NCBI GenBank assembly: GCA_963555755.3
Contig: OY820905.2
Coordinates: 576,001-640,000, forward strand
Direction: 5' to 3'
DNA from: Nitrospirales bacterium
GTDB lineage: Bacteria > Nitrospirota > Nitrospiria > Nitrospirales > UBA8639
DNA length: 64,000 nucleotides
The stretch's first letter is position 1; the number at the start of each line of letters is the position of its first letter. A program made the translations under genes and the position numbers. Under the pieces are notes generated by a model. That model had not been told where the DNA came from and ran no database searches. It worked only from the letters and a program-made list of their open reading frames with translations. Below, in pieces: positions 3,659 through 57,465 of this stretch.

Positions 3659-3815
3659 GGGCTCGCGCAAGAATAATTTCCCTTGTTTGGGTGCTGAGGC
3701 GCCTGTCTGGCAAGGCGCGAGGACGGCGCATACTCCTCGTATGGAAAGGACGAGCAACGCCGCCAGACAGGATGGATCGACGCCCAAACAGGGGAAGTTA
3801 TTCTTGCGCGAGCCC
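3659..3815. mobile_element. MITE-like element family A, copy 1
   Basis: ~35-bp terminal inverted repeat GGGCTCGCGCAAGAATAA...; flanked by TTA/TTA; homologous copies at 20366, 37223 and 52969. Confidence 0.85.
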
Positions 3816-4090
3816 TTAGTATGTAAGGACTAGTATAAGTCGTGTATCATAGGGAAGAAACGAATCTGTTTCTAGATGCTTTGAAAACTTTTTTAAATTT
3901 TTGGGAACTTTTTCTGCAAGTTGTCCAATCTCCGATGAGTTTCTTATACTCTTGAACAGGCCGGGATGAAAGAGAACCCCTCACCCTTCCCTTTCCCCTC
4001 AGGGGCGAGAGGAATTATAGGTTGAGCCCCCTCATTGCCATCTCATCGAATATTTATTTTCACGTAAAATTTTACGGAAGGAGTGTTTGA

Positions 4091-4759
4091 ATGGAATATG
4101 CAAAAGAAGAAGGAAAAACTGATGTTCAGGATGACCCGAAGGCCAGGGAGCTTATGAGACAGGCGTTTGAGAAGACTTCGCGATGGCCAGATGGGTTTGG
4201 TGGGTTTGAGGCAGATTTATCGATCAACGTGAATGGCGAGGTGACCACCGGTACGGTGACGGTGAAATCGTCTAAAGAAGTTGAAGTATCACTTCCGAAT
4301 GAGGACCTTCAAAAATGGGCGCAGGGGCAAATTTCCATGATTGCCACGCATCGTGGGCCACGGAACTTTGATGAGTCCGATGGGAAATACAATCTTTCAT
4401 TTGCTGGTCAGGAGAATCATCCTCAAGGACCACGCATCAATTTAGGTGATCCGATGAACTCCTCTTATCGTGTCAAAGATAGTCGCATCACACAGATTAA
4501 TCGGAAAATGCCGTATGTCGCGTTCACAATTAATGTCGAAGATAGTGCGCTGACTCAAGATGACAAATACCTCACCACCCGCTACACCGTGTATTATTTC
4601 TCCCCTAAGGATGGCTCACTGTCGAATGTCGAAAGTTTTTCAGACACTCACACAAGAGTTGGGAGTGCGGATCTGCCTGCGACACGACGCATTATTTCGT
4701 ATGAAAAAGGTGAGATGGTGACGCGGACGATGACGTTTGAAAATCATAAAACCCTGTAA
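4091..4759 (+). CDS. DUF3386-like protein
   Basis: ARELMRQAFEK.SRWP..FGGF.AD and SSYRVKD.RITQINR pattern; GGAG RBS. Confidence 0.65.
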   Translation: MEYAKEEGKTDVQDDPKARELMRQAFEKTSRWPDGFGGFEADLSINVNGEVTTGTVTVKSSKEVEVSLPNEDLQKWAQGQISMIATHRGPRNFDESDGKYNLSFAGQENHPQGPRINLGDPMNSSYRVKDSRITQINRKMPYVAFTINVEDSALTQDDKYLTTRYTVYYFSPKDGSLSNVESFSDTHTRVGSADLPATRRIISYEKGEMVTRTMTFENHKTL

Positions 4760-4779
4760 CGGTAGGTTCTTACAAGTTC

Positions 4780-4828
4780 AAATTTCTCCGTTCGTGCTGA
4801 GCTTGTCGAAGCATGAACGGAGAAATTT
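4780..4828. repeat. REP-like hairpin, possible terminator
   Basis: AAATTTCTCCGTTCGTGCT-gagcttgtcga-AGCATGAACGGAGAAATTT. Confidence 0.7.
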
Positions 4829-4960
4829 ATGTTAATCACCTACTTGCGAACAATATTTACTTCCACAAGCAGCTGGGAATTTATGTGGAAAATGGTTGTG
4901 AAAATCCCCCTAACCCCCTTTTCCAAAGGGGGGATACTGCTGAGCGCTGAAATTTAGATT

Positions 4961-5389
4961 ATGGATCTCAGATCAGAATATCCACGTAGCATGCGCGAAA
5001 GTTTTGGCGGCTACGTCCACTTGGCTCGGATGATTGATAAATGCCGGGCCAAGCATGTGGGCATGTTGGGCGAATATATTTTTCCCTGCCCCATAGATCA
5101 GCGCCTCTTAGATTTTACTGGGATTTCCGGCGACACGTTTCTAGAGACCGTTCACTCTCGAACAGACGATGAAGTCCTTCATTGGCTCCAATCCACCGCC
5201 CTCTCTCACACCCCTCAGGAAATTGAAGATTGGAACTCTACTCTCCTCAACCGTGGACCTGATACAGACGAAAAGCGCGAATATTTCAAAAAGATTCGCG
5301 ACAGCATCGATCCTACCCGCACCGATATTACCACCTGGGCCGATTTGTTAGATTTAGATGAAGGAAGAAAGGTGTCCTTGAGGACGTAA
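4961..5389 (+). CDS. DUF5069-like protein
   Basis: DL...PRS.R..GGYVHLARMIDKCRA...GEY...CP.D...DLDEGR pattern. Confidence 0.7.
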   Translation: MDLRSEYPRSMRESFGGYVHLARMIDKCRAKHVGMLGEYIFPCPIDQRLLDFTGISGDTFLETVHSRTDDEVLHWLQSTALSHTPQEIEDWNSTLLNRGPDTDEKREYFKKIRDSIDPTRTDITTWADLLDLDEGRKVSLRT

Positions 5390-5453
5390 CGTGTGCAAGG
5401 GAAGAAAAACCAATAGTGGAAAAATACGCTTTAATCTCGGCCTGCAATGCACT

Positions 5454-6182
5454 TTAAGAAAGCCCCTGCCCGCTGGTTCCGCCACCGAAGCCGCCGAAGC
5501 TTCCCCCGAATCCCCCCTGGCCTGTGCTCCAATATTCTCCACGTCGCCACCGTTGGAACGGATGCCGTCGCTCTGGTCGTGTGAAACGCCAGAGGGCAAA
5601 TACCATAGCCACCACCGCGGCGATTTTCATCCAAAAGCCCCTATTCGAGGACCGTTTCTTTTTTGCAAATTCTTTGGTCACACTGCCAGAGGCTGAGGCT
5701 AAACCAACAGCGGTTTGAAACAACGCTTCTCCAAATTGAGCATTCTGAAACATGGGATTGAGATATTCCTCTGACAATTTGTCCAGATGGGGTTTGCTGA
5801 TCACGGAGAGTAAATTCCGGCCGAGCACGACCACAGCTTGACGTTCTTTCAATGAGGCCAGCAATAAAATGCCCTGTTCTTGCTGCACCGTACCAATTCG
5901 CCATGCTCCATACAGTTCCTTGGCGTAGTCGCGGGCATGACCAAAAGGACTCACTGTTGGAATGGTCACCACAATCATTTCGACACCGGTGCGAGTTTCC
6001 AATTCCCTGCAGACACTTCGAATCCGAGACTTCCATTCATCAGTGAACATCTCCGCAAAATCACTCACATAACCTCTCGGTGTTGGAAATGTGTGTTTTT
6101 TGATTCCATAGGGCGAGTTAGCCCAACACAAGGAAGGTGCCAGCAAGAACGCCACCATCAGTATCGATGAGAGGATTTTCAT
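5454..6182 (-). CDS. TPM domain-containing membrane protein
   Basis: Signal peptide, GYVSDFA, W.IG...GILLL, transmembrane helix, Gly-rich tail GGFGGSFGGFGGG. Confidence 0.75.
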   Translation of the reverse strand: MKILSSILMVAFLLAPSLCWANSPYGIKKHTFPTPRGYVSDFAEMFTDEWKSRIRSVCRELETRTGVEMIVVTIPTVSPFGHARDYAKELYGAWRIGTVQQEQGILLLASLKERQAVVVLGRNLLSVISKPHLDKLSEEYLNPMFQNAQFGEALFQTAVGLASASGSVTKEFAKKKRSSNRGFWMKIAAVVAMVFALWRFTRPERRHPFQRWRRGEYWSTGQGGFGGSFGGFGGGTSGQGLS

Positions 6183-6958
6183 GATTTGGCTCCCTGAAAG
6201 CGTCCTTCTTGTGCCAGGGCCTCAACTCGTTCCGTCAATGCGCCTAAGGCCACAAGATAACGATCAAGCAGATGTGGGAATTCGTGTTTGCCTGGTGTAC
6301 TTTGTCCTCGTTTCAATAACCAGACTTCGTGGAACGCGCTGGGGTCAAGCTGCAAGACTGAGGACATGCGATCCAAGATAGCATCCGGCGTGCCTGTGGT
6401 TGCTTGACCCAGTAATCGATACAGCCCACGCAGACAGGGAATCAAGGTAGTGAGAGAAATGGGCAACAATGCATGAATACCTTCAGAATTCCCGTTAGAT
6501 TCGACAAATTGTTGGCGGACTCGGAGTAGGTTGCCACGAATTTCTCGTTCACATTCATTAAACAGGTTCCCGCCCGTGAGGTGGAGTTCAGGAAACGGAT
6601 CGCGCCCGGCCAACATCAGGTGGTGATCACGAATGTCAAAGAACTCCAACGGAAACGTTTCAAGAAAATGTTGCAATTCATTTCGTGTAAATAGCAGCGG
6701 AGTCACGAAACGTTCCTTCGCCCACCGACGACTGAGTGTACTGCATTGCTTCATGATGTCGAGCGTGATGGTGTCAAAAACCATGAGAAGATTGATATTC
6801 GATCGTCCCTCAAGAAAATCACCACCAGCCAAACTGCCATACAAAATAATGGCCGACACATCGTCTCCAAGCCTTTTCGTGACATCGCGGAGATAGGAGC
6901 GGAGGATGTCTTGAGTCCGTTCGGGCATTCCTGCCCAGGTTTTTGGAATTTCAGGCAT
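6179..6958 (-). CDS. Nucleotidyltransferase-fold protein
   Basis: SAIILYGS..GDF...SNINLL and FPLEF.DI motifs; overlaps the TPM gene by 4 bp. Confidence 0.65.
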   Translation of the reverse strand: MPEIPKTWAGMPERTQDILRSYLRDVTKRLGDDVSAIILYGSLAGGDFLEGRSNINLLMVFDTITLDIMKQCSTLSRRWAKERFVTPLLFTRNELQHFLETFPLEFFDIRDHHLMLAGRDPFPELHLTGGNLFNECEREIRGNLLRVRQQFVESNGNSEGIHALLPISLTTLIPCLRGLYRLLGQATTGTPDAILDRMSSVLQLDPSAFHEVWLLKRGQSTPGKHEFPHLLDRYLVALGALTERVEALAQEGRFQGAKS

Positions 6959-6993
6959 GAGAATATTGAAGCGTTGTGAAACCTTTTTTGAAA

Positions 6994-8268
6994 TTAGCGT
7001 GACAGAGCATGCGAAGGGAGTTGATTCGCGCGAGGATCTGGAAGAAAACCAGCGGCTTGCAATCGATCAATCATGCCAAAAGGTGGCGTTTTGCGCAATC
7101 CGGCTGTCGCGGTCAACACTTGATATTGAAGACGGAGGTTATGATCAATGGTCGAAAAGACTCGATTGCGAAGCCAGGCTAGAAGCGGATTGGCGGTATT
7201 CCAAAACAACACTTCTTCATCAGCCAGTCGCTGCAGCATCTCGACTTGGGGGCGCCGTTGATTCTCAAAAACTTTTAGCGCCTCAGCCGAATATGTATCC
7301 TGGGCAAAACAGGTCGTGAGCACATCAGCTAGAGCAACGGCATCAACCATAGCCTGCATCCGGCCTTGCGAGGCATGCGGGTTCATCCCGTGGGCCGCAT
7401 CACCGATCAGTACTGCTCCGTCGGCCACCCACGTTTTAGCGCGGGCACGCCCCGTTCCCATATACGCCGTTTGCTCCCATGTCTCTAACCCTTTAAATGT
7501 CTGACCAAGATCCGGATAAATCGCCTGCCACTTCCGTTGCAAAAACTCAACTCCTTGTTGTTTCACCGCCTGAAGGGCATCCGACGCAACCATAAAAAAT
7601 ACGTACACTTGATGCCCGGCAGCGGGAAAGATCCCAAGAATTTCTTTTTCCCCTAGAAAATACTGAGATTCCAAGAGTTGTTCCGGACAGGGCAAAATGG
7701 AAATCAAATAACTTTCTTTGTATCGATGCAACTGCGTCGCGATACCCAATTTTTCACGAACCCGGGAAAATGGACCATCTGCCCCAACGACCACTTTTGC
7801 GGAAATACGCACAGGCTTTCCTTGGGTTTCAGCCTCAACACCCGCAACCGTGCTCCCCTCTTGGATCAGTGACGTAAAGCTGGTGTTGTACCACAACCCG
7901 CCAGGATTTTGCTTTTCGAGCTCTTTAAGCACGGTGTGATGGACGGTGTTCGGGAGTGTGACGAGAGCACGGTTATACGGTTTGGGCAGAAGATCGTAAT
8001 CGATGGTACATAACCGCTTCCCACCGATTTGGCGAAAATGAAAGTACCGGACAGGATTGACCGCCTCCTTGGGAAGGTTATCGAGGAGATGTAATGCATC
8101 AAGGATTTGCTGACCATTGGGTTGGAGAATCTCACCACGCAAGCCGGTAGGCGGACCAGGACTTTTCTCAAGCACCAACGTTTTGATGCCTTTCTTGGCG
8201 AGTAACACGCCAAGAATGGCACCCCCTCCCCCGGCACCTACAATCACGACATCTGTTTGAATATCCAT
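6994..8268 (-). CDS. FAD-dependent monooxygenase/oxidoreductase (UbiH/PheA-like)
   Basis: GAGGGG Rossmann motif, VVGADG..S.VR, LIGDAAH.M.P...QG. Confidence 0.85.
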   Translation of the reverse strand: MDIQTDVVIVGAGGGGAILGVLLAKKGIKTLVLEKSPGPPTGLRGEILQPNGQQILDALHLLDNLPKEAVNPVRYFHFRQIGGKRLCTIDYDLLPKPYNRALVTLPNTVHHTVLKELEKQNPGGLWYNTSFTSLIQEGSTVAGVEAETQGKPVRISAKVVVGADGPFSRVREKLGIATQLHRYKESYLISILPCPEQLLESQYFLGEKEILGIFPAAGHQVYVFFMVASDALQAVKQQGVEFLQRKWQAIYPDLGQTFKGLETWEQTAYMGTGRARAKTWVADGAVLIGDAAHGMNPHASQGRMQAMVDAVALADVLTTCFAQDTYSAEALKVFENQRRPQVEMLQRLADEEVLFWNTANPLLAWLRNRVFSTIDHNLRLQYQVLTATAGLRKTPPFGMIDRLQAAGFLPDPRANQLPSHALSR

Positions 8269-8349
8269 ACCTCTACGCTTCGCTATCTAGAAATGATGGC
8301 CGTACTTGAGGGGAATGTCTGGTTGAACCGACGAAAATTGGCTGACCTA

Positions 8350-8640
8350 GGAGCCTGTCCCAGATTAGACGAATCTACTGCGGATGCGCTGGATTTGGCC
8401 AGATCTTCCGAACCTTTTCGGGGAATGTTGAAACAGGCCGCCAGCTGCGTTCTCGGGCTTTTGGCGTGCTCACGTACTCCGTGTACGCTCCGCGCGCCAA
8501 AAGTCCTGCGGCCTTGCTGGACGGCCTTTTTGAACCTTCCCCGTTTTCGTTGAATAGTCCAACTATTCGCCTCAAACGGTCGAAACATCTGACTCAAACC
8601 AGCACATCCTCGCAACGATCGCTAATCTCGGACAGGCTCC
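8350..8640. mobile_element. MITE-like family C copy carrying a nested family B element
   Basis: TIR GGAGCCTGTCC.AGATTAG at a CTAG/TA site; 291 bp = 162-bp empty copy (53614-53775) + 121 + 8. Confidence 0.85.
8421..8541. mobile_element. MITE-like family B, copy 1 (nested)
   Basis: TIR GGGAATGTTGAAA / TTTTTGAACCTTCCC; flanked by CCTTTTCG / CGTTTTCG. Confidence 0.8.
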
Positions 8641-8643
8641 TAG

Positions 8644-8907
8644 TCAGTATTCAAAAATTTTTTGAAAATGATCCTCTGCTTCTTCCCAAGCAGCGGAGTT
8701 GGTTTTCTGCAGCCAACCTTTGAGAAAGGCTTTTTGCTCCGCGGTTAACATCTGTTTGATTTGATGGGTTCGTCCTTGCAGCGGTTGCAAAAACCCAACA
8801 TTCTTTTTCGGATCCAGCGTGGCCGTCCGGACATAGACATTGGTATAGGCGGATGGGACATCATCCTCTCCTTCGCCCTGGAGCCACACGGAAAGATACT
8901 TATCCAT
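8644..8907 (-). CDS. Small hypothetical protein
   Basis: Compact ORF MDKYLSVWL...; start uncertain. Confidence 0.55.
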   Translation of the reverse strand: MDKYLSVWLQGEGEDDVPSAYTNVYVRTATLDPKKNVGFLQPLQGRTHQIKQMLTAEQKAFLKGWLQKTNSAAWEEAEDHFQKIFEY

Positions 8908-9305
8908 ATTTAACCCCGTACTATCTATTGCCGGTTCTGTTTCATGGAACAGATCATTTTCGGTCTGAGACAGCGGAGTGGCTTCATGAGCCCGGAAAAG
9001 AAAATTGTGATTCCACATCAGCCTGTTACCTGAACGAAACAGCGAGTTGATAAAAAATTTCGAATCCGGCCATATTGTCAAGGACCTCAATCGAAAGTCA
9101 ACTCTAAGAAGGGTTCCACTATCGAAGATTCATCTATTCCTTGAAGATCCTTCCTTGCTACAATTGCACCCTTAGGGTTTACTCATGAGGGATGATTCTG
9201 GTAATGTTTTTTTGAAAAATTTCCTACCCCCTCGAGACAACTTGATGTCAATGATTACATGACTATTTTTGGTTTTTTCATCCTAGGAGGAAGGAGTCAG
9301 TCTTT

Positions 9306-9914
9306 ATGAAACGATTCATACTACTTGGGGTTTTGATGAGCGTGATGACACTCGGCGGATGTGCAGGGTCAGGGGAAGTCTTTCAACTCCGCTTGCATGA
9401 TGTGATGCTTCCCTCCATGGAACAAGTCGGAGGGGACCTTTCGGTTGTGGTGTCCGATTTTAGCGATCAACGTCCTCAAACCGAACATCTTGGAAGTCAT
9501 GTCTGCATAACGGGCCACATAACCCATTTTGACCTTATGGATAGCAATCTTGGAAAAGACGTCTCAGATGCATTTGTGGATTTTCTTCAAAAATCAGGAT
9601 TTCAAGTAAACAGTGGTACGAGTGGAGCAGCGGATGTGCGCATTACGGGGAAAGTCACCACGTTTTCGGCCAACGCTACAGGGAAATTTCTTCGCACGAA
9701 CCTAGAGGTTGAGACGATCATGGAATTTGTCATTGCCAATGTGGCGGACGGCAGCACGATTCGCATGACGATCGGAGCCGGTGGAACAGACGATGTCACC
9801 TTTTTTGGTCCAGAGGACATGGAAACCCTCGTGAACGAAGTCCTCCAAGAAGGATTTGAGGAACTGCTCGAACAAACCGTCGTACAGGGGAAAACACTGC
9901 GCAGAAAAATTTAA
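9306..9914 (+). CDS. Lipoprotein (YajG-like)
   Basis: Lipobox LGGC after a hydrophobic stretch; F.DQRP motif; AAGGAG RBS. Confidence 0.6.
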   Translation: MKRFILLGVLMSVMTLGGCAGSGEVFQLRLHDVMLPSMEQVGGDLSVVVSDFSDQRPQTEHLGSHVCITGHITHFDLMDSNLGKDVSDAFVDFLQKSGFQVNSGTSGAADVRITGKVTTFSANATGKFLRTNLEVETIMEFVIANVADGSTIRMTIGAGGTDDVTFFGPEDMETLVNEVLQEGFEELLEQTVVQGKTLRRKI

Positions 9915-10314
9915 CATGGTAAATCACAGACTTTGTTGATTTATCGCTCTTCGCATAAACCCGTACTGACTTTTTTTAATAAATTCCTCCTTATTCCTCC
10001 CCCCTTTGGAGGGGGGCTTGGAGGGATTTTCCTTTCAAGATCTGGCCAAGTTTGAAAAATACTTTCCACGTTCATTCGTCGGCCTTTGGTTTTCAAAGAT
10101 GCTGCAGTATGTGAAGTATAGTAAAATCCTTTCTACCCTCTTTTTCAAAGAGGAAGTCGCATAACACTCCTCACCATTATCCAATTTCCCACACCAATAC
10201 CCAACGCCCTACCCATGGCCTACGTTTCCGTACATGGCACATGCGCCCGTTGGCAGAAAATTTCGTGGTCGCATTTCCCCCCCCTTCCGGTTTTGGTCAA
10301 AACCTATTGAACCT

Positions 10315-11328
10315 ATATGCCTTCCCATTTGACTAAGGTTAGTCCCTAGACTAGTCTGCTGGACTATGGACACAGGGTATGCTGCTGATATCTTGGATTT
10401 TTCTGTTAGGTTCCACACCGAAGAAGCGTGCTTCGAGTACTTGCGGGCGATTCGGTGGCCAGACGGGTTTATGTGTCCAGCTTGCGGTCATCGCGGTGGT
10501 TGGTGGCTCAAAAAATATTTCCGGTTTGAGTGTTCGTCGTGTCATAGACAGACATCACCGCTAAGCGGCACAGTGATGCATAGATCGCACTTGCCGCTAC
10601 GGCTTTGGTTTTGGGCTGCCTATTTCGTCTCCACGCACACACCTGGCATCAGTGCTGTGCAATTGCAGCGTCAACTCAGTATCAAGAAGGTGGATAGCGC
10701 CTGGTATTTGCTCCACAGATTGCGACGAGGAATGGTACGACAGAACCGTGAACGGCTCGCAGGAACAGTTGAAGCCGATGAAACCCATATCGGTGGACCG
10801 GTAAAAGGCAAAACGGGCCGTGGCGTCGCGAAAGCGAAAACCAAGACGTTAATAGCCGGAGCCGTAGAAATTGTCACGTACACACAAGGGGATCACTTTC
10901 GAGAGAAAGCAGGGCGTTTACGATTAGCGATTCTTCAAGACGCTGGAGAGAACGAGATCAAAGCATTCCTCAATAGCCATGTCGCTGAGGGCAGTAAGAT
11001 CAAGTCCGATGGTTGGAAGGGATACTCGGCAAAAGCCTTGGCAGGATACGAACACCTGAGACGGACCCAGGGTGACCCAGCAAGTGCTGGGAAGCACGCT
11101 CCACACATCCATAGAGCGTTCGGCAATCTGCAGACCTGGCTGAACGGGATTCACCATGGAGTGGATTCAAAATACCTGCAACACTATCTTGATGAGTTTG
11201 TCTTTCGCTATAACCGCCGTGAGACTCCAATGAGTACCTTCCAGAGTTTGTTGAAAATCCTGACCAGCAGCTCAAAACCCTTGGGATTCAATAAACTGAA
11301 GCAACCTTAGTTAAATGGGAAGGCATAT
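10315..11328 (+). mobile_element. IS1595-family insertion sequence
   Basis: 26-bp IRs ATATGCCTTCCCATTT(G/A)ACTAAGGTT with one mismatch; no target duplication visible. Confidence 0.9.
10366..11310 (+). CDS. IS1595-family transposase
   Basis: Zn ribbon CPACG...CSSC, VEADETHIGG, SDGW, HHGV..KYLQHYLDEF.FRYNRR. Confidence 0.92.
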   Translation: MDTGYAADILDFSVRFHTEEACFEYLRAIRWPDGFMCPACGHRGGWWLKKYFRFECSSCHRQTSPLSGTVMHRSHLPLRLWFWAAYFVSTHTPGISAVQLQRQLSIKKVDSAWYLLHRLRRGMVRQNRERLAGTVEADETHIGGPVKGKTGRGVAKAKTKTLIAGAVEIVTYTQGDHFREKAGRLRLAILQDAGENEIKAFLNSHVAEGSKIKSDGWKGYSAKALAGYEHLRRTQGDPASAGKHAPHIHRAFGNLQTWLNGIHHGVDSKYLQHYLDEFVFRYNRRETPMSTFQSLLKILTSSSKPLGFNKLKQP

Positions 11329-11336
11329 CACTCAAA

Positions 11337-12251: not shown

Positions 12252-12318
12252 ATTAACACCGCGATCCCTTAAGGGGCCGTTGAGAAAGTCCCAACGAGAT
12301 TAGCAAGCCTTTTACCAA

Positions 12319-12498
12319 GGACCTGCGAGAAAATAATTTGATTAATATCGCGCCAAGATTTGGGTCGGATTTGGACGGAACGATTGAGAAATACCCGAGG
12401 CATAGCACAGCTATGGTAAGGGTGTTTCGATTGAGGCCCGTTCAAAGATGGCCCGAAGATTGGATGCGAGATTGATCAAATTATTTTCTCGCAGGTCC
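12319..12498. mobile_element. MITE-like family D, copy 1
   Basis: TIR GGACCTGCGAGAAAATAATTTGAT; 180 bp; second copy at 57145-57324. Confidence 0.85.
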
Positions 12499-12509
12499 TA
12501 AGATGACCC

Positions 12510-17675: not shown

Positions 17676-17934
17676 GAAAAGATAACGCTTTTTTCCTCTA
17701 AAAAAACTTAGATGTGGTATTTCATGGCCTTGTTTGCAATTTGGTCATGTAAATCCCTTTATTCCCCAATGCTTTGCGACTGGGTTACCATGGAGGTCCC
17801 CCCTTTGGAAAAGGGGGTTAGGGGGATTTTCTAATCATAAAAGTACCCCGTGGATTGCGAGGGGGGATCTTTATTTTATTTCAGATTTCGATATTCGAGT
17901 TTCGGATTTGTTCAATATATTTTTGCACAGAACC

Positions 17935-18375
17935 TTATACATCTAACACAACTCGGGCTCGATAATGGCCAGGTTCTGTATGCACTTCGTACAGATGCTT
18001 CGTGACCGCTTTGACATCGGCGCGGAGTTCTTGAGTCGTGCCATCAATACTAGCCCCCACGATCATCCCCCGAACATGCCAAGTTTGGGCACCCGTATCC
18101 TGCCATACCTCAGCCTGTATATCATGAAATAACACCGCCTCGGCATCTTTGAGAAACACAAAGGTAGACAACCATTCAAATAAAAGATCTTGGAGGGTTG
18201 GTTGAACCAACTGTACTTCATGGTTCCACTGTGTGCCCACTGTGCGTGGGTTCACCATAGCCTCCAGCAGGGCCCCGCCGGCTTCAATAAATAATTCTGA
18301 GGGGGATGCACCCCAAGCGTCAAACGCCAAATCAGCCAGAGCGATATCTTCAAGGAACCGAAATCCTTTGCCCAT
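17935..18375 (-). CDS. Archease
   Basis: FRFLE...AD.AF, LL.EWL, DVKAVTKH, C-terminal VVLDV; directly upstream of rtcB. Confidence 0.88.
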   Translation of the reverse strand: MGKGFRFLEDIALADLAFDAWGASPSELFIEAGGALLEAMVNPRTVGTQWNHEVQLVQPTLQDLLFEWLSTFVFLKDAEAVLFHDIQAEVWQDTGAQTWHVRGMIVGASIDGTTQELRADVKAVTKHLYEVHTEPGHYRARVVLDV

Positions 18376-18583: not shown

Positions 18584-20052
18584 CAATACTGTTCACTTAG
18601 ATATCTTCGGTGGTTTGATGGATGGTGTCCAGTCAATTTGCGCAACGGGCGGTCTCGGACGTTTGTACGGTGCGTATGGAGAGTTTCTGCGTTTCACCAT
18701 CCTCGGCTTGATTTTTCCACGACTGGATTCACACAACAGTTTCGCCGTCGCCTCAAACAGCAGCCGATACCATGTTTTTTGGCGCTCAGGGGGGAAGGGC
18801 CCCAGATTGGGGCAGGGTTCGACGCACTAACTGCACCGTGGCCGTAAAAGATACTGTGCGGTCCGGGATGTCTGCCTGGGTGGCCCCTTGATACATCAAC
18901 CAGCGCACGGCGTAGTGGGCCATCACCCATCCGTAGAACTCTTGACGCACCAACTCCGGCGTTTTGCTGCGCAGGACGCGACGACGTTGCCTCAGGTGCG
19001 TCTTCAGCTCATCAAACACCAATTCCACCTCCCAGCGCTCGTGATACAGTTGAGCCAGGTCCTGGGCGGGTGCGCCTTGGTCATCCAGCAGCGTGGTGAC
19101 GAGACGGTACAGCGGTTCGCTATTGGGCCCCTGCGGTAAGACATACTCAATCACCCTGATGGCGATCCCATCAATTCGCTTTCTTCTGGCGCGTTCACTG
19201 GGATACAGATGGCTCAGGTACGAGCCATCGTCCAACAGCTTGTCAACTGGAAGGATCAAGCTCTTCGGCATGCGCCAGAGTAGTTGCGCTCCGGTCTGAA
19301 GGCCGGCCTGCCAATGGGCGTACCCGACAAAGCCGCGATCGGCCATGCAGAGCATGTCGGGCGTGAGGCGACGCACCAAGGGCGCGGCCACCTCCCATTC
19401 GGCCTGCTTATAGGCCCCTAGTTCGGCATCCAAAATGGCGTGACTGGCACATTCCGTCAAAATGGCGCACTGGGCTTGGGGGTAGCCGGCCTGCCCGGTT
19501 CGGCTGCCTGGGTACCCAAAGGCTTGCACAGTGGCTTCCTCATCCGGGACCTCAAAGTTGGAGCCATCTATCGCGACGAGTCGGTAGCCTGCAAAAAAGG
19601 CGTGGGCATGCTCTGGACGAGCCAACGGGCGCAAGCAGCGCTGCCCAATGGCTTTCAGCGCCTGCCACGTCAGCCGTGAGCGGGCTTTGCTGATGGCGGA
19701 TTTGACAACGCTCACGGGAGCCACAGGTTGCTGGTCTTGCCAGGACAGCCCTTGGGCCACAGCGGCAAACACCGCTTCGTACGCGGCCTCGCTGTATAAG
19801 CTCAACGCCATGGTGTAGTACACCACGGCAGAAGCGGGAAAGGTGCGGACACGTTCACTGTTACAATGATGTGCGTCAAGTTCTTCGTTGATGATGGCCA
19901 CCGGAAAGGCACGAGCCAGTAATCCCGTGCTCAAATAATCCGCCAATCGAGCCCCCGCCCCCAAGCCGACTTTCTTTCTTGCCATGTTGCCTCCTCCCAG
20001 ATTACGTGTGGAGGCGAAGTATAACAGATTTTCATCTAAGTGAACAGTATTG
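18584..20052 (-). mobile_element. IS4-family insertion sequence (1469 bp)
   Basis: Perfect 19-bp IRs CAATACTGTTCACTTAGAT; 10-bp target duplication GGTCAGGCCT at 18574-18583 and 20053-20062. Confidence 0.93.
18786..19985 (-). CDS. IS4-family transposase, possibly extended by a +1 frameshift
   Basis: LVAIDGS, MADRGF, YHERWEVE..FDELK; ends ...LPP-stop at CCC TGA. Confidence 0.9.
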   Translation of the reverse strand: MARKKVGLGAGARLADYLSTGLLARAFPVAIINEELDAHHCNSERVRTFPASAVVYYTMALSLYSEAAYEAVFAAVAQGLSWQDQQPVAPVSVVKSAISKARSRLTWQALKAIGQRCLRPLARPEHAHAFFAGYRLVAIDGSNFEVPDEEATVQAFGYPGSRTGQAGYPQAQCAILTECASHAILDAELGAYKQAEWEVAAPLVRRLTPDMLCMADRGFVGYAHWQAGLQTGAQLLWRMPKSLILPVDKLLDDGSYLSHLYPSERARRKRIDGIAIRVIEYVLPQGPNSEPLYRLVTTLLDDQGAPAQDLAQLYHERWEVELVFDELKTHLRQRRRVLRSKTPELVRQEFYGWVMAHYAVRWLMYQGATQADIPDRTVSFTATVQLVRRTLPQSGALPP

Positions 20053-20365: not shown

Positions 20366-20521
20366 GGGCTCGCGCAAGAATAACTTCCCATGTTTGGGCG
20401 TCGATCCATCCCGTCTGGCGGCGTTGCTCGTCCTTTCCATACAGGAGTATGCGCAATCCTCGCGCCTTGCCAGACAGGTGCCTCAACACCCAAACATGGG
20501 AAGTTATTCTTGCGCGAGCCC
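20366..20521. mobile_element. MITE-like family A, copy 2 (inverted relative to copy 1)
   Basis: Same TIR; TAA/TAA flanks. Confidence 0.85.
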
Positions 20522-26877: not shown

Positions 26878-27603
26878 ATGGAACCCTTTCCAAAAAAAAT
26901 GAAATGTATTACTGGCACGTTCACTGGTTTCACCGTTGTCTTCACAGTATCTATTTGGCTACTTGTCGGGAGTGGGTTGGCCTGGGGCAATGCTACTGAT
27001 CAAACACAGCTTGTGGACAATGCCACACACACCATTGAAAGCTTCATGGACGATCCTCAGTTAACCTGGTTTCACGACCATGTCAAAGATGCCAAAGCCT
27101 TGCTGATCATTCCACAATTATTAAAAGGTGCGTTTATTTTTGGGGCAGAGGGGGGAAGCGGCGTGCTCATTGTCCGCGATCAAGATTCAAATAATTGGAG
27201 CAACCCGGCTTTTTACGTGTTGGGCGGACTCAGTTTCGGGTTTCAGTGGGGGGGACAAGCCTCGGAAGTCATCATTATGGCCAGGACAGACGGCGCTGTT
27301 GAAAACCTATATACCTCCTCCTTTAAATTGGGTGGTGATGCCTCGATTGCGGCCGGCCCCTATGGTGCGGGGATTGAAGGAGGGACCTCAGCGAATCTCA
27401 ATGCCGATTTTCTCTCATTCTCTCGCTCAAAAGGTGCCTTCGCAGGCATTTCATTTGTAGGAGTGGTCATCTACGCCAGTGACGACTCAAATGAAGCGTA
27501 TTATGGAAAAGCCATTCGACCACTTGATATACTGACAAAAAAGTCAGTCACCAATCCACATGCCAATGGCTTACGAGAAGCAGCGAAAAAGGCTGTTCAA
27601 TAA
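26878..27603 (+). CDS. SYLF (Ysc84) lipid-binding domain protein
   Basis: KGAFIFGAEGGSGVL, SFGFQ.G, LGGDASIAAGP, SRSKG.FAG.S. Confidence 0.8.
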   Translation: MEPFPKKMKCITGTFTGFTVVFTVSIWLLVGSGLAWGNATDQTQLVDNATHTIESFMDDPQLTWFHDHVKDAKALLIIPQLLKGAFIFGAEGGSGVLIVRDQDSNNWSNPAFYVLGGLSFGFQWGGQASEVIIMARTDGAVENLYTSSFKLGGDASIAAGPYGAGIEGGTSANLNADFLSFSRSKGAFAGISFVGVVIYASDDSNEAYYGKAIRPLDILTKKSVTNPHANGLREAAKKAVQ

Positions 27604-27605
27604 TC

Positions 27606-27723
27606 TGTCATTTCGACCCTTGGGAGAAATCTCTCCATTGGGGTTAGAAAGGTTGCATGGGGGGTGGGAAATAAGAGATTTCTCCCAGGGGTCGAAATGA
27701 CAATGGTGAGGGTCGAAATGACA
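27606..27723. repeat. REP-like inverted repeat between convergent genes
   Basis: TGTCATTTCGACCCTTGGGAGAAATCTCT...AGAGATTTCTCCCAGGGGTCGAAATGACA plus an extra GGGTCGAAATGACA half-site. Confidence 0.75.
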
Positions 27724-27759
27724 ACGGTGGCGGTTGTTCCAACCATTCCTAATATTCCC

Positions 27760-37222: not shown

Positions 37223-37379
37223 GGGCTCGCGCAAAAATAACTTCCCATATTTGGGCGTCGACCCATCCCGCCTGTCGGCGTGGCTCGTCCTTTCAATCTG
37301 AGGAGCATGCGCAGTCCTCAAGCCCTGCCAGACAGGTGTCTCAGCACCCAAACATGAAAAATTATTCTTGCGCGAGCCC
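37223..37379. mobile_element. MITE-like family A, copy 3
   Basis: Same TIR; TGA/TTA flanks; lies between amt and glnA. Confidence 0.82.
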
Positions 37380-38847: not shown

Positions 38848-39219
<372 letters not shown>

Positions 39220-43312: not shown

Positions 43313-43433
43313 GGGAATGTTGAAAAAAGCCGCCAGCGGCGTTCTCGCCCTTTTGCCGTGCTCACGTACTATGAGTACGCTCCGCGCGTCAAAGCGCCTG
43401 CGGCCTTGCTGAGCGCACCTTTTTGAACCTCTC
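43313..43433. mobile_element. MITE-like family B, copy 2
   Basis: GGGAATGTTGAAAAAAGCCGCCAGCGGCGTTCTC...CTTTTTGAACC. Confidence 0.8.
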
Positions 43434-43566
43434 CTGTCTGGCTTTTGTGGGTTCCTAAAAAAATGGAAGGGGTTTTGGAAATCTACGCGCAAAGATTATG
43501 GGTCTGTTGAATATTCAGGTCCATGACCCATAGGTACTCCAGGGAAGCCGGCTCGCATCAGTGGGA

Positions 43567-43712
43567 GGGAATGTTCAAAAAAGCATGCCCTGAGTCTTTC
43601 CGAAGGGTCTATCCAGCAAGGCCGCAGCCCTTTTGACGCGCGGAGCGTACTCTCAGTACGTGAGCACGGCAAAAGGGCGAGAACGCCGCTGGCGGCTTTT
43701 TTCAACATTCCC
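43567..43712. mobile_element. MITE-like family B, copy 3 (reverse) with a small REP-like insert
   Basis: TIR GGGAATGTT(C/G)AAAA; insert GCATGCCCTGAGTCTTTCCGAAGGG; may extend left to ~43500. Confidence 0.8.
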
Positions 43713-43713
43713 A

Positions 43714-44091: not shown

Positions 44092-44108
44092 GTTCCTCAT
44101 CAATGTAT

Positions 44109-44338
44109 GGGCCTGTTGAAAAAGCATGCCCTGAGTCTGGCCGAAGGGTCCGCCAGCGGCGTTCTCGGCCCTTTGTCGTGCTCACGTACTTTGAGTACGC
44201 TCCGCGCGCCAAGCCTACTCCGCCGAAGTAGCCTTTGGCTACGAAGGCCGGGAGTGCCTGCGGCCTTGCCTGTGGAAGGGCGCGTCTTGGCGAACCTGGG
44301 TTGGGCGGGTCAGACAACGGGCCTTTTTGAACAGGCCC
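44109..44338. mobile_element. MITE-like family B, copy 4 with several nested inserts
   Basis: TIR GGGCCTGTTGAAAAA / TTTTTGAACAGGCCC; family B core interrupted by three short inserts. Confidence 0.78.
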
Positions 44339-44418
44339 TTTGCCGGTGATGATTCATATGTATTAGTCAGATAAGGGTCTCACTCTAAATATTTTGAATT
44401 ATTCAAAAGCCCCTGTAT

Positions 44419-44640: not shown

Positions 44641-44674
44641 AGGGACTCCTAAATCTCAAAAGCAGGCGACACAG

Positions 44675-45435: not shown

Positions 45436-45507
45436 ACAATTTTGAATCAGAATTGTTTTCGGCAATCGAAGAAAATCACTTTATCAAAAGGTCCATACCC
45501 CTGCAAT

Positions 45508-47186: not shown

Positions 47187-47207
47187 ACATGAGTCCCGAC
47201 AAATTAA

Positions 47208-48512: not shown

Positions 48513-48542
48513 TTTTTAGTGGAACCTGAAGTTCCATCGCTA

Positions 48543-48862
48543 GGACTTGTCCAAAAATAACTTGAGTTTTTTAGTCTCATCTTCACGCCATCTTTGACCG
48601 ATCTTTGTGCCAAAAAACCTTGAAATATCTCGATATTCCGGCGCCTTTTCGTCACAACGATCAATCAAACCTAACATAAATCTGAGCCTCAAAACTCAAG
48701 GGCACCTCTAAAAACCGTCCTTTTCCGTGATGGCGGCGTCAGCCGCGTGCTCAAATCCTCATGTATTCGCCCATACACTCCGGTTTTCCGCGCACAGCTT
48801 CCTTGCCCTCACAAAAAATGCCGGGTTTTTAGAGGTGCCCTCAAGTTATTTTTGACAAGTCC
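48543..48862. mobile_element. MITE-like family E (related to D) with a nested family F element
   Basis: TIR GGACTTGTC(C)AAAAATAACTTGAG; interior aligns with family D. Confidence 0.75.
48700..48840. mobile_element. MITE-like family F (nested)
   Basis: 17-bp perfect TIR GGGCACCTCTAAAAACC; 4-bp duplication TCAA. Confidence 0.82.
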
Positions 48863-48893
48863 TTCGTGCGAAACAGATTCGTTACCGTGAGGG

Positions 48894-50267: not shown

Positions 50268-50371
50268 CCTACAACCACTCCTTAGCCATGCCATGAAAGA
50301 AAAAAAATATGGTCACAACACACAACGCATGAGTCAATGATATCACTACTGAGGGGCCAGATGTCACACCC

Positions 50372-52702: not shown

Positions 52703-52968
52703 TGTTTAAATCGTTGAAAAGATTTTTTATTCTCTGTTTCGAAAATCGTCAGATGGTAGGCGGGAACTGAAAGGCCAAGCCACTCTTCCCGCACCCTTCC
52801 GCCTTACACCTTCCGTTGCACGAAGGCCATTTTTCCTTTTCTCTATAGATGGGTAGCCCACAGAACCATGGATTCGTGTCTGCTGTATTGTAAGCGGGAT
52901 GGAGTAGGATTGAAATGGCCTTCAACCCCATTGAAGGAGATACGGCGGTGTGCACAAATAGGTACTAA

Positions 52969-53125
52969 GGGTTCGCACAAGAATACCTTCCCAGGTTGGG
53001 GCGTCGATCCATCCATTCTGGCGACGTAGCTCGTCTTTTCCACACGCGGAGTATGCGCAGTCCTCGCGCTTTGCCAGACAGGTGTCTCAGCACCCAAACC
53101 TGGCAAGGTATTCTTGCGCGAACCC
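52969..53125. mobile_element. MITE-like family A, copy 4 (variant ends)
   Basis: GGGTTCGC...GCGAACCC; abuts the DUF1844 stop codon. Confidence 0.82.
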
Positions 53126-53547
53126 TAGGACGTAGGGTTTTTACCCGAGGCCGCCTCGACGTATTTCATGCGCAGGGTATACAGCATGTCCTTCATGACC
53201 GCGGCCTCATCCGAAGTTAAATTTCCTTTGGTTTTCTCTTCCAGAATCGAGAGAATGTCCACAATTTCCTTTGCCTGCGGCAAGTTCACCGGAGCATGGG
53301 GCTGATCAGGGCTCAATTTTTCCCCCATAAGCATTAAGGCCGAGGTTCCCAGGGAAAAAACAAATGAGGAAAATGCGAGCGGAGGAGCAGGTTCGTGGGT
53401 GTGTTCAGAGGCGGTTTGGGTATCTTGGGTTACCTCAGAACCTGGCGAAGAGGACGAAGGTGTTGCGGTTGAAGAAGGTTCTTCGCGAAATTGCCCGCGC
53501 TTATCACGAATAACAAACCCTTGTTGTTCTTCTTCCTCCTCAGGCAC
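53125..53547 (-). CDS. DUF1844 domain protein
   Basis: GFVIRDKR, F..FV.SL...AL..MG, AK..VD.L..LEEKTKGNL...E...L..LRM.Y. Confidence 0.8.
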   Translation of the reverse strand: MPEEEEEQQGFVIRDKRGQFREEPSSTATPSSSSPGSEVTQDTQTASEHTHEPAPPLAFSSFVFSLGTSALMLMGEKLSPDQPHAPVNLPQAKEIVDILSILEEKTKGNLTSDEAAVMKDMLYTLRMKYVEAASGKNPTS

Positions 53548-53613
53548 GGCAACACCCCTTGATTATTGGAAAATGGAAATTATCACAATCCCCTTGAGCC
53601 CGCAAGATGGCTA

Positions 53614-53775
53614 GGAGCCTGTCCGAGATTAGGGATCGTTACAAAGGAGTGCTGGTTTGAGTCAGATATTTCGATCGTTTGAGGCGAATAGTGGTACTAT
53701 TCAACGAAAAGGATCGGAAGATCTGGCAAAATCCAGCACACCCACCGTAGATCCGCCTAATCTTGGACCGGTTCC
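53614..53775. mobile_element. MITE-like family C, empty copy (162 bp)
   Basis: Reverse-complement homolog of 8350-8640 without the nested element; TA flanks. Confidence 0.82.
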
Positions 53776-53780
53776 TAACA

Positions 53781-53808
53781 TTGAAGACCACCCCAAAAAC
53801 GGTATAAT
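53781..53808 (+). promoter_or_regulatory. Putative sigma70 promoter for mazG
   Basis: TTGAAG-16 bp-TATAAT. Confidence 0.4.
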
Positions 53809-53901
53809 GGGGGCCTGTGTTCATGAAGGTCAAAAGGTTGATCTTACACTGTAAGGAAATAACTCTCATGTTCCCCAAGACACAACCGTTTTCCCAATAT
53901 T

Positions 53902-54783
53902 ATGTCACAAGCTTTTGACGATCTTGTCGCACTGGTGGCTCGACTCAGAGCCCCTGATGGCTGCCCATGGGATAGGAAGCAAACGCATGACTCGCTCAAA
54001 CCCTATCTCATCGAAGAATCCTATGAAGTCTTAGAGGCTTTGGATCGAAATGATCCCCGTCAACTTCGTGAGGAGTTAGGCGATCTGCTTCTGCAAGTCG
54101 TGCTCCATACTGAACTTGAATCAGAACAAAACCATTTCACCATGCAAGATGTCATCACAACATTGAATGAGAAACTGGTCAGACGACACCCCCATGTTTT
54201 CACCAAAGAAACCGGACCGTCCTTGAATGCCGACCAAGTCATTACCCAGTGGGAAAAAATTAAGCAGTCTGAACGCTCAGAGCAGGGGCAAGAAGAGTCT
54301 ATTCTGGAAGGGGTCCCTGCCTCCCTCCCCGCTCTTTTACGCGCCTACCAAGTGCAAAAACGTGCCTCTCGTGTGGGCTTTGATTGGGAGCAACCCGAAC
54401 AAGTCGTTGAGAAACTTGATGAAGAGCTGCAAGAACTCCGAGAAGCGACCATCCATCACCAATCCAGAGCAGCCTCCTCTTCCCACGGACAGGATGTGTT
54501 GATTGCCTGGAAAGCTATTGAACAGGAATTTGGTGACGTGCTCTTCACCATTGCAAATTTGGCAAGATTTTTGAAAATCAATCCTGAAGAAGCCTTACGA
54601 AAATCCTGCAACCGATTTGTGACTCGCTTTGCTACGATGGAACAACAAGCAGCGGATGTGGGAAAGGAGCTACAACAACTCAACCCGGAAGAATGGGAAA
54701 CATTTTGGGAAGTCGCAAAAAAGCATGAACGGAGTACCCACAACCTCCCCTCAGCCTCTTCAGGACGGAGTGATCAGTCATGA
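53902..54783 (+). CDS. mazG: Nucleoside triphosphate pyrophosphohydrolase MazG
   Basis: LRAPDGCPWD, EESYEV, EELGDLLLQV, KLVRRHPHVF, GFDW, EFGDVLF. Confidence 0.93.
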   Translation: MSQAFDDLVALVARLRAPDGCPWDRKQTHDSLKPYLIEESYEVLEALDRNDPRQLREELGDLLLQVVLHTELESEQNHFTMQDVITTLNEKLVRRHPHVFTKETGPSLNADQVITQWEKIKQSERSEQGQEESILEGVPASLPALLRAYQVQKRASRVGFDWEQPEQVVEKLDEELQELREATIHHQSRAASSSHGQDVLIAWKAIEQEFGDVLFTIANLARFLKINPEEALRKSCNRFVTRFATMEQQAADVGKELQQLNPEEWETFWEVAKKHERSTHNLPSASSGRSDQS

Positions 54784-55409
54784 GTGACTCTGAAAAACAA
54801 AACGGAAGACGTGTCGGCGTTCACCCCATGATTGTGGTCTTCGGCGTGATTTTTGGTCTGTGGGCTTTCACCCAAGCCATCATTCCAGAATCAAAAAAGA
54901 TTCAACCGCCCCAAGGCCATGAATCCCAATCCGTGCAAACCGCCTCCATTCTGGAAGAGGCACGCACCACAGCCGTCCCCATATTTAAAATGACGGCTGC
55001 CGTACCAACGATGAATGCCATCAGCGTACTTGTCCCTGAACAAACGACTGACAGCCAGGTCGCCGCGTTGGTGGCCTACCTGCGTGATGCCCGCACAGAT
55101 GGGACTCTCTCTTCCATCCTGTCTCCCACGACCCCGAATAACCACCTTGGTCCATTTTCCATTGCGAACATCTTTATTTTTTCTGATCGCCAATATGCCG
55201 TCGAAGAAGCCATTCAGATTTTATCCGTGGGTGCACATGCCCCGGGGGATATTTATGGGAAGGAGATTCCCTATGAAGTGGCCATGGAACATGTCCGTGG
55301 CCATTATATGGTGAACCTCAACAACAAAACCAAACAGGACCAAGGCACACTGGGTTTTGGGGAAGTCGCCACCGGGCTCTATTCGCGTCGGTATCTCCCC
55401 ATCTTTTAG
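54780..55409 (+). CDS. Hypothetical membrane-anchored protein
   Basis: Overlaps the mazG stop (ATGA); N-terminal TM. Confidence 0.6.
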   Translation: MSDSEKQNGRRVGVHPMIVVFGVIFGLWAFTQAIIPESKKIQPPQGHESQSVQTASILEEARTTAVPIFKMTAAVPTMNAISVLVPEQTTDSQVAALVAYLRDARTDGTLSSILSPTTPNNHLGPFSIANIFIFSDRQYAVEEAIQILSVGAHAPGDIYGKEIPYEVAMEHVRGHYMVNLNNKTKQDQGTLGFGEVATGLYSRRYLPIF

Positions 55410-55530
55410 GGGGATGTTGAAAAAGGGCGTCAGCGGCGTTCTCGGCCCTTTGTCGTGCTCACGTACTGCTGTACGCTCCGCGCGCCAAAGCGCCTGCGGC
55501 CTTGCTGAGCGCACCTTTTTGAACATCCCC
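55410..55530. mobile_element. MITE-like family B, copy 5
   Basis: GGGGATGTTGAAAAA...TTTTTGAACATCCCC directly after a TAG stop. Confidence 0.82.
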
Positions 55531-55611
55531 CTTGCTTTGGTGGGAGGGCAATTTAAATAATTTCAATGCGAAGGAGGAAAGCCTGACAGAGCAATTTTGG
55601 TGAGGAATAAT

Positions 55612-56019
55612 TTACAAGCCCACGATCTTTTGAATTTCCTGCCGTAAACGCTCACGCTCTTCTTTCATCCAACTTTCCAGTTTGGGGAAAAGGTAGGCTA
55701 ATGATCCAGTAAACGGCTCAATCATCACATCCCGACGGTCAACAAACATATTCGCTTCATTCGCCAGTTCAAGTTTTCGGTCTCCAATAGCACGAGTGAG
55801 AATTTGATTGACTCGAAGTTGCTGACCCGCCGATCCACCGGAAATTTCTAAAATTTTACTTTTAAAGACATTCAGTTCTTCTTCCAGCGAGATTTTCACA
55901 CGGATCCCTTGTGGGGTGCCCCAGTTGGGGCGTTGAACCGAATAATCATAAGACATGGCAGGCTCCTGGGGTTCCCGGTACGGACCCATTACATTTAAAA
56001 TGGTGTAGGACTCAGCCAT
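55612..56019 (-). CDS. Hypothetical protein
   Basis: 135-aa ORF with AAGGA RBS. Confidence 0.6.
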   Translation of the reverse strand: MAESYTILNVMGPYREPQEPAMSYDYSVQRPNWGTPQGIRVKISLEEELNVFKSKILEISGGSAGQQLRVNQILTRAIGDRKLELANEANMFVDRRDVMIEPFTGSLAYLFPKLESWMKEERERLRQEIQKIVGL

Positions 56020-56085
56020 CAGAATTCCTTTGGAGCCTGCCCAAGATTAGACAGATCTACTGCGGGTGCGGGAATGAGAAGAAAG

Positions 56086-56133
56086 TGGTCGGGGCGAGAG
56101 GATTGGAACCTTCGACCCCCGCGTCCCCAACGC
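56086..56133 (-). other. 3' half of tRNA-Pro(GGG), att-like island junction
   Basis: Minus strand GCG TT GGG GA CGCGG GGGTC GAAGG TTCCAAT CCTCT CGCCCCG A CCA; no 5' half or D-arm. Confidence 0.7.
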
Positions 56134-56488
56134 CAATTTATTTGCAACGGTAGCCAACACAATGCCACACCGTACCATGCAAACACCGCGCCTAGCAAGG
56201 TGTTTACCTGCTTCTTGTTGCTTGGCGTGGTTTTGCTGGGTATGGGCGAACCGTGACTTTTTTCGTATTTTTTGAGTTGGAACCGTCACTCTAACCGTTA
56301 CCGTAAAAACACTATACGTACCAGGGTAGAAATCTCAGGGAGGCAATGGGTCGGTTCGCTACCGACTCGGCGGTGTGTTTCCTGACCATCGTACGGAAAT
56401 TAACATTCGGGTCTTCTCCCAAGTGAGTGGGTAAATTGGGGCGAGTAATGTCCTGTTCCTTCAGATTGTATCCTCTAACCGTAATAAT

Positions 56489-57465
56489 GGTTCTGTCGCA
56501 AATACTCGACCGAGACGAAAAGCATGTGATGGTTGGCCTGCACTACGCGGCGAGGGCATAGAACATTTCAGCAGAAGTTTTCCTATCTCCCGCGAGGGTT
56601 TTCATCTGACCTTTCTTGATCATGGCCATAATTTCAATCCCAGCTCATGTCCGTTGGGCCGCGTGAAAGGTTTTGAAGCCCAGCACCGATCGCGTGAGCC
56701 TTTTGATGCATCGGTGGTCTTGCTCGATAATATTGTTCAGATATTTGCACTGACGGATTGTAATACGTGTGTGATGGTCTCGATTCAACTGTTTCAGGCC
56801 CGCTTGGTTCGCCCCACTCTGATCGATATTCACCAGACTCGGGTTGCCGTTTTCATTGATAGCGTTCTTCAAAAAGCGTAAGGCAACTTGCGTATCTCGT
56901 GTCGCGGTCAAGAGAAAATCGATGGTATGCCCTTGCGTATCGATGGCCCGATAATAATATTTCCATTGGTCCTTGACCTGAATGTAGGTGTCATCCATTC
57001 TCCACCGAGTGCCGATGCGCTTTTTTTTACGCCGAAAGGCGGCTTCCAGTTGTGGCGAATCATGAATGACCCAGCGATTGATGGTACTGTGGTCAACGGA
57101 GAATCCACGTTCTAGCATCAATTCTTCAATATCCCTGTAACTAAGGACCTGAGAGAAAATAACTTGAACAATTTCGCGCCACGATTTGGGTTGGATTTGG
57201 ACGGAACGATTGAGAAAAACCCGAGGCATAGCACAGCTATGTTGAGGGTTTTTCGACTGAGGCCCATTCCAAGATGGCCCGAAGATTGGATGCGAAATTG
57301 TTCAAGTTATTTTCTCTCAGGTCCTAAGGGATTACACGAGATACCAACGAACGCTTTGCAGATCATGTCTTGATGAAAATGCGTCTCTTGAAGGATATGG
57401 CTACCATGATGGTCTCCCCCTCAAATAGCTTCAGGTTAACACATCAAGCTATTTGCGACAGAACC
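56489..57465 (-). mobile_element. IS6-family element with pseudogenised transposase interrupted by a family D element
   Basis: 16-bp IRs GGTTCTGTCGCAAATA; LSYRDIEELM.ERG, RWRMDDTY, YLNNIIEQDHR; frameshifts and stops. Confidence 0.88.
57145..57324. mobile_element. MITE-like family D, copy 2, inside the IS6 transposase
   Basis: TIR GGACCTGAGAGAAAATAACTTGAAC; TAA/TAA duplication. Confidence 0.88.

Follow-up and report, generated by a model that had tools for sequence, protein, structure and literature searches.

The ERIC repeat has served as a typing target for >30 years. The parts of the literature that deal with it describe it as an enterobacterial and vibrio repeat with TA ends (PMC2229807, PMC2267715), and those passages do not name its mobiliser. 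[quoted passage not shown] Here we analyse small elements in a 64,000-nt stretch (the window; positions 576001–640000 of contig OY820905.2, assembly GCA_963555755.3) of the 4.6-Mb genome of a Nitrospirales bacterium. The original prediction listed 15 rod-shaped copies in six families (4 A, 5 B, 2 C, 2 D, 1 E and 1 F) and read them as one conserved structured cargo carried on swapped ends of insertion sequences (ISs). We find that all 15 are genuine non-autonomous transposons (MITEs). The core of families B and F, together with that of a further family, J, is the centre of ERIC and is found in many bacterial phyla. The module, which had been thought possibly uncharacterised, is not wholly so, since ERIC is a member.

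Profile searches and the printed sequence placed all 15 copies where they had been described, and each motif quoted for a family was present in at least one window copy of that family. Positions were right; two B copies proved longer than the hairpin, with true ends at 43500–43712 and 44109–44413. A seventh family, G, lies at 62927–63091, beyond the span first described. Genome-wide, full-length copies numbered 163 (A), 170 (B), 44 (C), 101 (D), 120 (F) and 67 (G), and three families outside the window had 15 (J), 16 (L) and 35 (K); mean identity to the family consensus was 85–98% across these families. Family E had one near-full relative and fragments in the genome. The elements are short, non-coding and multi-copy and have terminal inverted repeats, as MITEs do. 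Exact target duplications of 3 bp flank 92/163 A, 67/101 D and 48/67 G copies, and those of 4 bp flank 97/120 F copies. An 8-bp duplication fits 6/15 J and 7/16 L copies if a boundary error of 1–2 bases is allowed for; the signal of family C is weaker (TA in 19/44, a CTAG-type context in 13/44).

The D copy at 57145–57324 (+; TAA duplicated) splits the transposase gene of an IS6-family element (56489–57465, −), and three genomic homologues preserve the empty site. Filled and empty sites were also found for nested insertions and for extended B elements (see below; one contig of one run), and there was no clean empty site among the joints listed from another set of DNA runs. Composites spread as units: a B-in-C composite has 33 copies, and A occurs in G at one and the same site in 32 copies. 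There was no replication-strand bias once nine tests were allowed for (lowest p = 0.028).

Autonomous partners were identified for some of the families. The ends of C are common to two IS1182 elements in the genome, and those of J and L to a 2413-bp IS66 element, which is present in 12 copies and duplicates 8 bp of its target. The 16-bp end of F fetched 119 metagenome loci, with eight distinct 1.22–1.33-kb elements enclosing a long reading frame; all seven tested large F-ended metagenome elements passed the IS5 cut-off, and most had no clean duplication. By these matches, F has IS5-like, C IS1182-like and J IS66-like ends. The shared core was missing from 15/15 scanned autonomous-IS loci, and the pairs C–IS1182, J/L–IS66 and F–IS5 show the pattern of MITEs with ends like an autonomous IS and an unrelated interior. 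Large B-, A- and D-ended elements were considered as partners and rejected; they are IS110, IS630 and an element that we take to be IS1634-like (a label of our own), inserted within MITEs. No linked helper gene recurred among 31 of the 108 viral-contig reading frames. In locus L002 (159–1043), the accessory gene of an IS66 element encodes a DruA (Druantia) domain, and at 33–2411 of the window a 2.6-kb element with several copies has a DruA domain joined to a DDE transposase of IS4-like type.

The core was searched for with the pattern GGAG-YKTAY-loop-RTAMR-TGAS...RACGC, whose degenerate letters were partly chosen with ERIC in mind. The pattern matched 334 times in the genome itself (reversed control, 0) and was present in 7 of 151 genomes of a phylum sample; a scan of species genomes gave at least 125 loci. 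Among the titles listed were Bacteroidota, Bacillota, Chlorobium, Arcobacter, Desulfobacterales, Mesorhizobium, Pseudomonas, Pectobacterium and Serratia. Several further features are not imposed by the pattern. The apical arms were exactly complementary in 122 of 128 matches (expected 1 in 8). CAAGGC stood upstream of 66 of the 128 exactly and of 93 with at most one mismatch (32 in a control window), and a spacing of 18–19 nt was found on the 5′ side in 69/93 and on the 3′ side in 76/128. The two apical arms are where the primers ERIC1 and ERIC2 fall (sequences in PMC7468466). In an E. coli chromosome the pattern matched twice, once with the exact apical arms of family B and CAAGGC upstream, and our covariance model R1, which includes four ERIC-type rows, matched 19 times. 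When ERIC rows were left out of a sequence-only profile, it found only 2/7 ERIC-type loci, at 19.4 and 14.6 bits (the highest of 350 shuffles reached 10.5). The pattern also matched inside an RNA-phage replicase reading frame (L293:1501–1560, L311); this match, probably due to chance, has a long 3′ spacer and lacks terminal repeats.

Covariation of the core is seen across phyla. In an alignment of 76 rows (71 of the 75 standard-spacing loci and five window copies) 82.9% of cells were paired compared with 62.2% after shuffling and 29–43% after sliding; the structure was drawn from the same sequences, and related rows inflate this score. The middle stem folds with its own partner at −15.6 kcal/mol and with swapped partners at −6.4 kcal/mol. 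Conservation of the unpaired motif bases extends over many phyla, and an invariant G-U pair lies beside the tandem GA. The length between the basal motifs falls into two classes, 38–40 and 57–60 nt (∼10 bp per arm apart), both of which also occur among F-ended loci not selected for the core. Such fixed spacing, in two classes about one ∼10-bp step per arm apart, is what might be seen if the core were bound as duplex DNA by a host protein that bends DNA or acts as a dimer, with the hairpin a by-product of palindromy; the 155-bp Correia form has an IHF site, according to a passage of the 2007 review (PMC2229807). We consider this quite improbable, given the range of apical-loop lengths (4–8 nt), the middle stems, which change sequence yet pair with their own partner, and the strong purine bias of the mismatches on one strand.

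How far the core is shared differs between families. Pairwise comparison of cores gave z of ∼14 for F–J, ∼5 for A–J, 2.5–2.9 for B–F and B–J and 2 for A–B; D–E reached 13.5, and C and D had no similarity to A, B, F or J. A sequence profile built from 67 foreign rows only, on which shuffles score at most 4.1, gave median bits of 19.9 for B (146/170 scored), 27.4 for F (119/120) and 22.5 for J (13/15). Families C, D, G and L did not score; A was near zero, yet of its 66 scored copies 65 had the orientation of the motif strand. R1 matched all five B copies and the F copy of the window (four of these B copies and the F copy are among its training rows) and, weakly, two of the four A copies (E = 0.011); there were no C, D, E or G matches in the window. 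Since the profile and R1 reach A only weakly, and C and D not at all, the claim of a single core is too wide. Core similarity is strong for B/F/J and also between D and E, which had been said to be alike; it is weak for A and absent between C or D and A, B and F.

Several elements combine parts of these cores. Family M (263 bp; 41 copies, at G000:C1:69385 and 40 other sites) nests the CAAGGC...CAACGCC frame within the AGATTT/AAAGAT frame of D, with an A-type module on the other strand. Family M has two core modules head to head, one per strand, and loci L163 and L200 appear to be two-module elements too. In locus L008 GGAG/TGAG encloses a D core whose apex is of C type, and a Desulfosarcina plasmid element has A ends, a CAAGGC/AACGC frame and the apical arms of E. 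Family C is present on a Pseudomonas plasmid, its stems covarying; no D core was found in plasmids, and in viral contigs the D-type apical pattern had one chance match in a gene and the C-type pattern none. As far as these comparisons go, the C and D/E cores differ from the B/F/J core and are linked to it only via hybrid elements; the interiors appear to be a kit of a few exchangeable modules, most with predicted tandem GA pairs. The idea of a conserved folded cargo on ends of several transposase families stands: the near-identical core of F and J is bounded by IS5- and IS66-type ends with 4- and 8-bp duplications, respectively. The cargo is several modules, not one core.

Five window copies folded as DNA were stable on both strands (z from −3.2 to −7.9, with 0/200 shuffles as stable), and in each of the five the motif strand folded better. 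In seven family consensuses opposed mismatches were purine–purine in 75 cases and pyrimidine–pyrimidine in 10. None of the 41 four-base apical loops was GNRA or UNCG. A K-turn usually has a 3-nt bulge; a canonical K-turn was rejected, as the apex bulge is 0 or 1 nt, not 3.

Extended forms of B are informative about both movement and conservation. A third B-type end lies upstream in 70 of 141 anchored B copies, 68 nt away in 46 of them. A 5-bp duplication was found at the outer B end in 47/70 (chance, 1.9) and at the inner left end in 0/70; the inner left end is conserved although the duplication never lies there. The window has two such elements. One (43500–43712, +) consists of an outer end, a 68-nt unstructured spacer and the hairpin (∼43568–43712), with ATTAT duplicated at the outer ends; the other (44109–44413, −) has small inserted hairpins and a duplicated TGTAT. 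In one contig of run X18, a relative, 312 bases at 44109–44413 are skipped and 2 put in; the net 310 bases equal the element plus one duplication and thus represent an empty site of matching size. The spacer (window 43500–43567; 70 copies) is fixed in length and fast-changing in sequence, and its constant length suggests a length rule for the pairing of ends.

In 52 of 59 extended B copies (seven divergent or gapped rows were dropped) the spacer differs from the consensus by 24.6% and the hairpin by 2.4%, and the spacer divergence follows a nested pattern in the lineage. It is conceivable that the elements are ordinary MITE debris without function and resemble one another owing to recent amplification, gene conversion and arm-to-arm repair: inserted copies do decay neutrally (see below), and copy numbers are sufficient for conversion. 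This explanation seems to us very improbable in view of the tenfold gap in divergence between spacer and hairpin, the conservation of unpaired motif bases over many phyla and the fact that arm-to-arm repair would remove, not preserve, conserved mismatches.

At L003 (G000:C1:1893080–1894560) and ∼11 other sites, an IS110-family RNA-guided transposase is inserted into a small insert of a B subfamily at one fixed point, with agreement among 11 left and 12 right junctions; empty targets lie at 43500–43712 and, as a variant, at 44109–44413. Hairpin inserts of 20–45 nt, often with CGAAG, occur at recurring B positions (window 44109–44413 and 43568–43610).

Substitutions were divided into shared (present in at least four copies and 4% of the family) and private (present in one copy). 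In families A, B, C, D, F and G private substitutions were evenly spread, with 436 in 726 paired and 125 in 196 unpaired sites. Private changes broke pairs in 284/436 cases; shared ones kept pairs in 176/247, 120 of them compensatory (p = 3e-20). At the motif sites of A, B and F there were 51 private changes in 86 sites compared with 190 in 332 elsewhere (p = 0.81), and nine shared changes compared with 144 elsewhere (p = 6e-7). Because private mutations are not depleted in the motif, there is no detectable host selection on resident copies. We infer that resident copies decay neutrally and that sub-lineages are founded only by copies with an intact fold. Orientation relative to host genes, called by a simple open reading frame rule, was balanced over all families taken together, with 120 sense and 127 antisense behind stop codons and 112 and 111, respectively, before start codons. 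With private mutations neutral, inherited ones avoiding the core and orientation unbiased overall, selection on the element's own spread is likely. The role first proposed, a host signal for RNA processing or stability, has become less likely, as single copies decay neutrally and gene orientation is unbiased overall.

With moderate confidence, we propose that the hairpin is a cis-acting enhancer of mobilisation in trans, acting as a folded single strand that is more likely DNA than RNA. We prefer this reading because ends and duplications are of DDE type, insertion shows little regard for the direction of transcription, RNA-type tetraloops are absent, the fold is purine-skewed as in attC and the inner repeat of B is kept. 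A strand exposed by replication, repair or supercoiling would fold into a rod that pairs both terminal repeats and places the 3′ end of the strand beside its own 5′ end. The AA/AAC-bulged basal motif and the tandem-GA apex, which stand at a fixed distance in the two size classes ∼10 bp apart, would be recognised either by a widely conserved host factor or by the transposase complex. The fold would ease the pairing of ends just 120–180 bp apart, and the transposases would be borrowed. The opposite strand, pyrimidine-mismatched, folds worse, and this would limit cruciforms. Tentatively, and with less assurance than the enhancer itself, one may go further and imagine a pan-bacterial modular enhancer of transposition, in which one folded single-stranded DNA motif and one conserved factor enable unrelated DDE transposases to amplify very short elements; ERIC would be one case, and bacterial MITE bursts would have a cis-acting engine in common.

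Several observations weigh against the enhancer reading. Compensatory changes can arise without selection, by arm-to-arm repair. Partner ISs for A, B, D, E and G were not found in the genome, viral contigs or plasmids; no gene family recurred among the 150 of 193 flanking reading frames scanned, and no enzyme or binding protein was found for the elements. Of 32 small F-ended elements from metagenomes, R1 matches 17, with family F itself or close kin in five cases; the other 15 are without the shared core, which is therefore not required for F-type ends to move. Plain B copies are seldom flanked by a duplication (3/41). Behind stop codons B is antisense-biased (23 sense and 50 antisense, or 23 and 47 when true ends are used and B-in-C is removed; p = 0.002–0.006, uncorrected); F leans the opposite way, with 25 sense and 13 antisense. 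The bias of B points to some selection at the transcript level, and orientation-dependent effects of ERIC on mRNA have been published, as related in the 2007 review (PMC2229807). The motif strand is favoured under RNA and DNA energies alike (91 and 87 of 93, respectively), so the two are not cleanly separated.

These last points bear on the main alternative explanation, that the core acts as RNA, either processed or bound in read-through transcripts, which would make insertions tolerable or useful, or serving an RNA copying intermediate. The greater stability of the motif strand in 91/93 under RNA parameters would fit, as would the RNA-like character of the invariant G-U pair beside the tandem GA, the orientation of B behind stop codons, the effects of RNase E and RNase III reviewed for ERIC and Correia (in the passages concerned) and sub-threshold Rfam matches to small RNAs (sRNAs) on ERIC-type loci. 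Still, orientation is unbiased overall, private mutations are not depleted in the motif, none of the 41 loops is GNRA or UNCG and the target duplications fit DNA transposases. We regard a primary role as RNA as possible but rather unlikely; by analogy with the effects reported for ERIC in Yersinia, it may be a secondary effect in some copies. In the window Rfam annotated nothing but tRNA, and in 20 of the 125 related loci nothing on the elements reached the gathering threshold. Below threshold, AaHKsRNA22, V_AS5, CssrA, sX9 and isrH matched repeats at L114, L126, L060, L037, L133 and L155; some curated sRNA families may overlap this superfamily.

The remaining window copies are as follows. Family A is found at 3659–3815 (+; short-class core CAAGGC...CAACGCC; TTA duplicated), 20366–20521 (−; TAA duplicated), 37223–37379 (−; more diverged) and 52969–53125 (−). 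The C element at 8350–8640 (−) has IS1182-type ends and contains a nested B hairpin (8419–8543, −) with a long-class ERIC-type core; the second C copy, also with IS1182-type ends, is at 53614–53775 (+). Further B hairpins lie at 43313–43437 (−) and 55410–55530 (−). The other D copy (12319–12498, +) shows the AGATTT/AAAGAT frame, and its predicted fold contains several tandem GA pairs. Family E (48543–48862, −) has a D-type core, and its terminal repeat is interrupted by the F copy (48700–48840, −), which has IS5-type ends, a long-class core and TCAA duplicated. The G copy (+; TAA duplicated) is a strand-asymmetric rod with no match to the shared core. Other short palindromic repeats, of the GTCATTTCGA type, the CCCCCTTT type and family K, do not match the core either (window 27603–27727, 2700–2760, 4863–4935, 17749–17935 and 2524–2614). 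The genome is very IS-rich; the window has IS1595 and IS4 transposase genes and multi-copy IS6-like fragments (10366–11310, 18786–19985 and 59537–59973).

If the same core is indeed selected for spread in IS5-, IS66- and other-ended elements, this would offer an explanation of how some MITEs come to number in the hundreds. An enhancer of transposition that acts in cis and is portable, with its binding factor, would be new biology. The genome offers J/IS66, C/IS1182 and F/IS5 as test pairs, and the B spacer is a built-in neutral control.

Our elements are MITEs of a known kind, related to ERIC, and we found their modular core described nowhere in print: the parts of the literature consulted give no description of a core shared between MITE families. 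In the relevant sections of PMC10969869, PMC3184786 and PMC11602168, type II MITEs (Correia/NEMIS, RUP, Chunjie and Pseudomonas R0/R2) are like the present elements in their terminal repeats, target duplications, lack of coding capacity, IS similarity limited to the ends and stable stem-loop. The census given there has sequence clusters that are 97% genus-specific and lists no shared interior, whereas the fold described here keeps its fixed motifs across phyla and types of end. Correia elements may also carry the present core. REP/REPIN sequences, GTAG/CGTC-tagged palindromes of 20–40 bp linked to RAYT, differ in size and duplications.

The integron attC site, as treated in part of PMC5027507, is a functional analogy for the proposed mechanism: it too is an imperfect hairpin with conserved unpaired bases, one strand of which folds better by purine skew. 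It differs in being recombined by an integrase within cassette arrays and without target duplication; the elements described here share the strand-selective imperfect hairpin and are dispersed, with IS-type ends and duplicated targets. ERIC is a relative in that B, F and J have its central hairpin with the ERIC1/ERIC2 primer motifs, a length of ∼120–130 bp and one long stem-loop. The apex of ERIC is without the bulged G of B, F and J, and neither TA termini nor ERIC terminal repeats were found in these elements, in which the core lies between IS5-, IS66- and other types of ends with duplications of 3–8 bp. Because ends and duplications differ, we consider the elements to be relatives of ERIC rather than ERIC itself.

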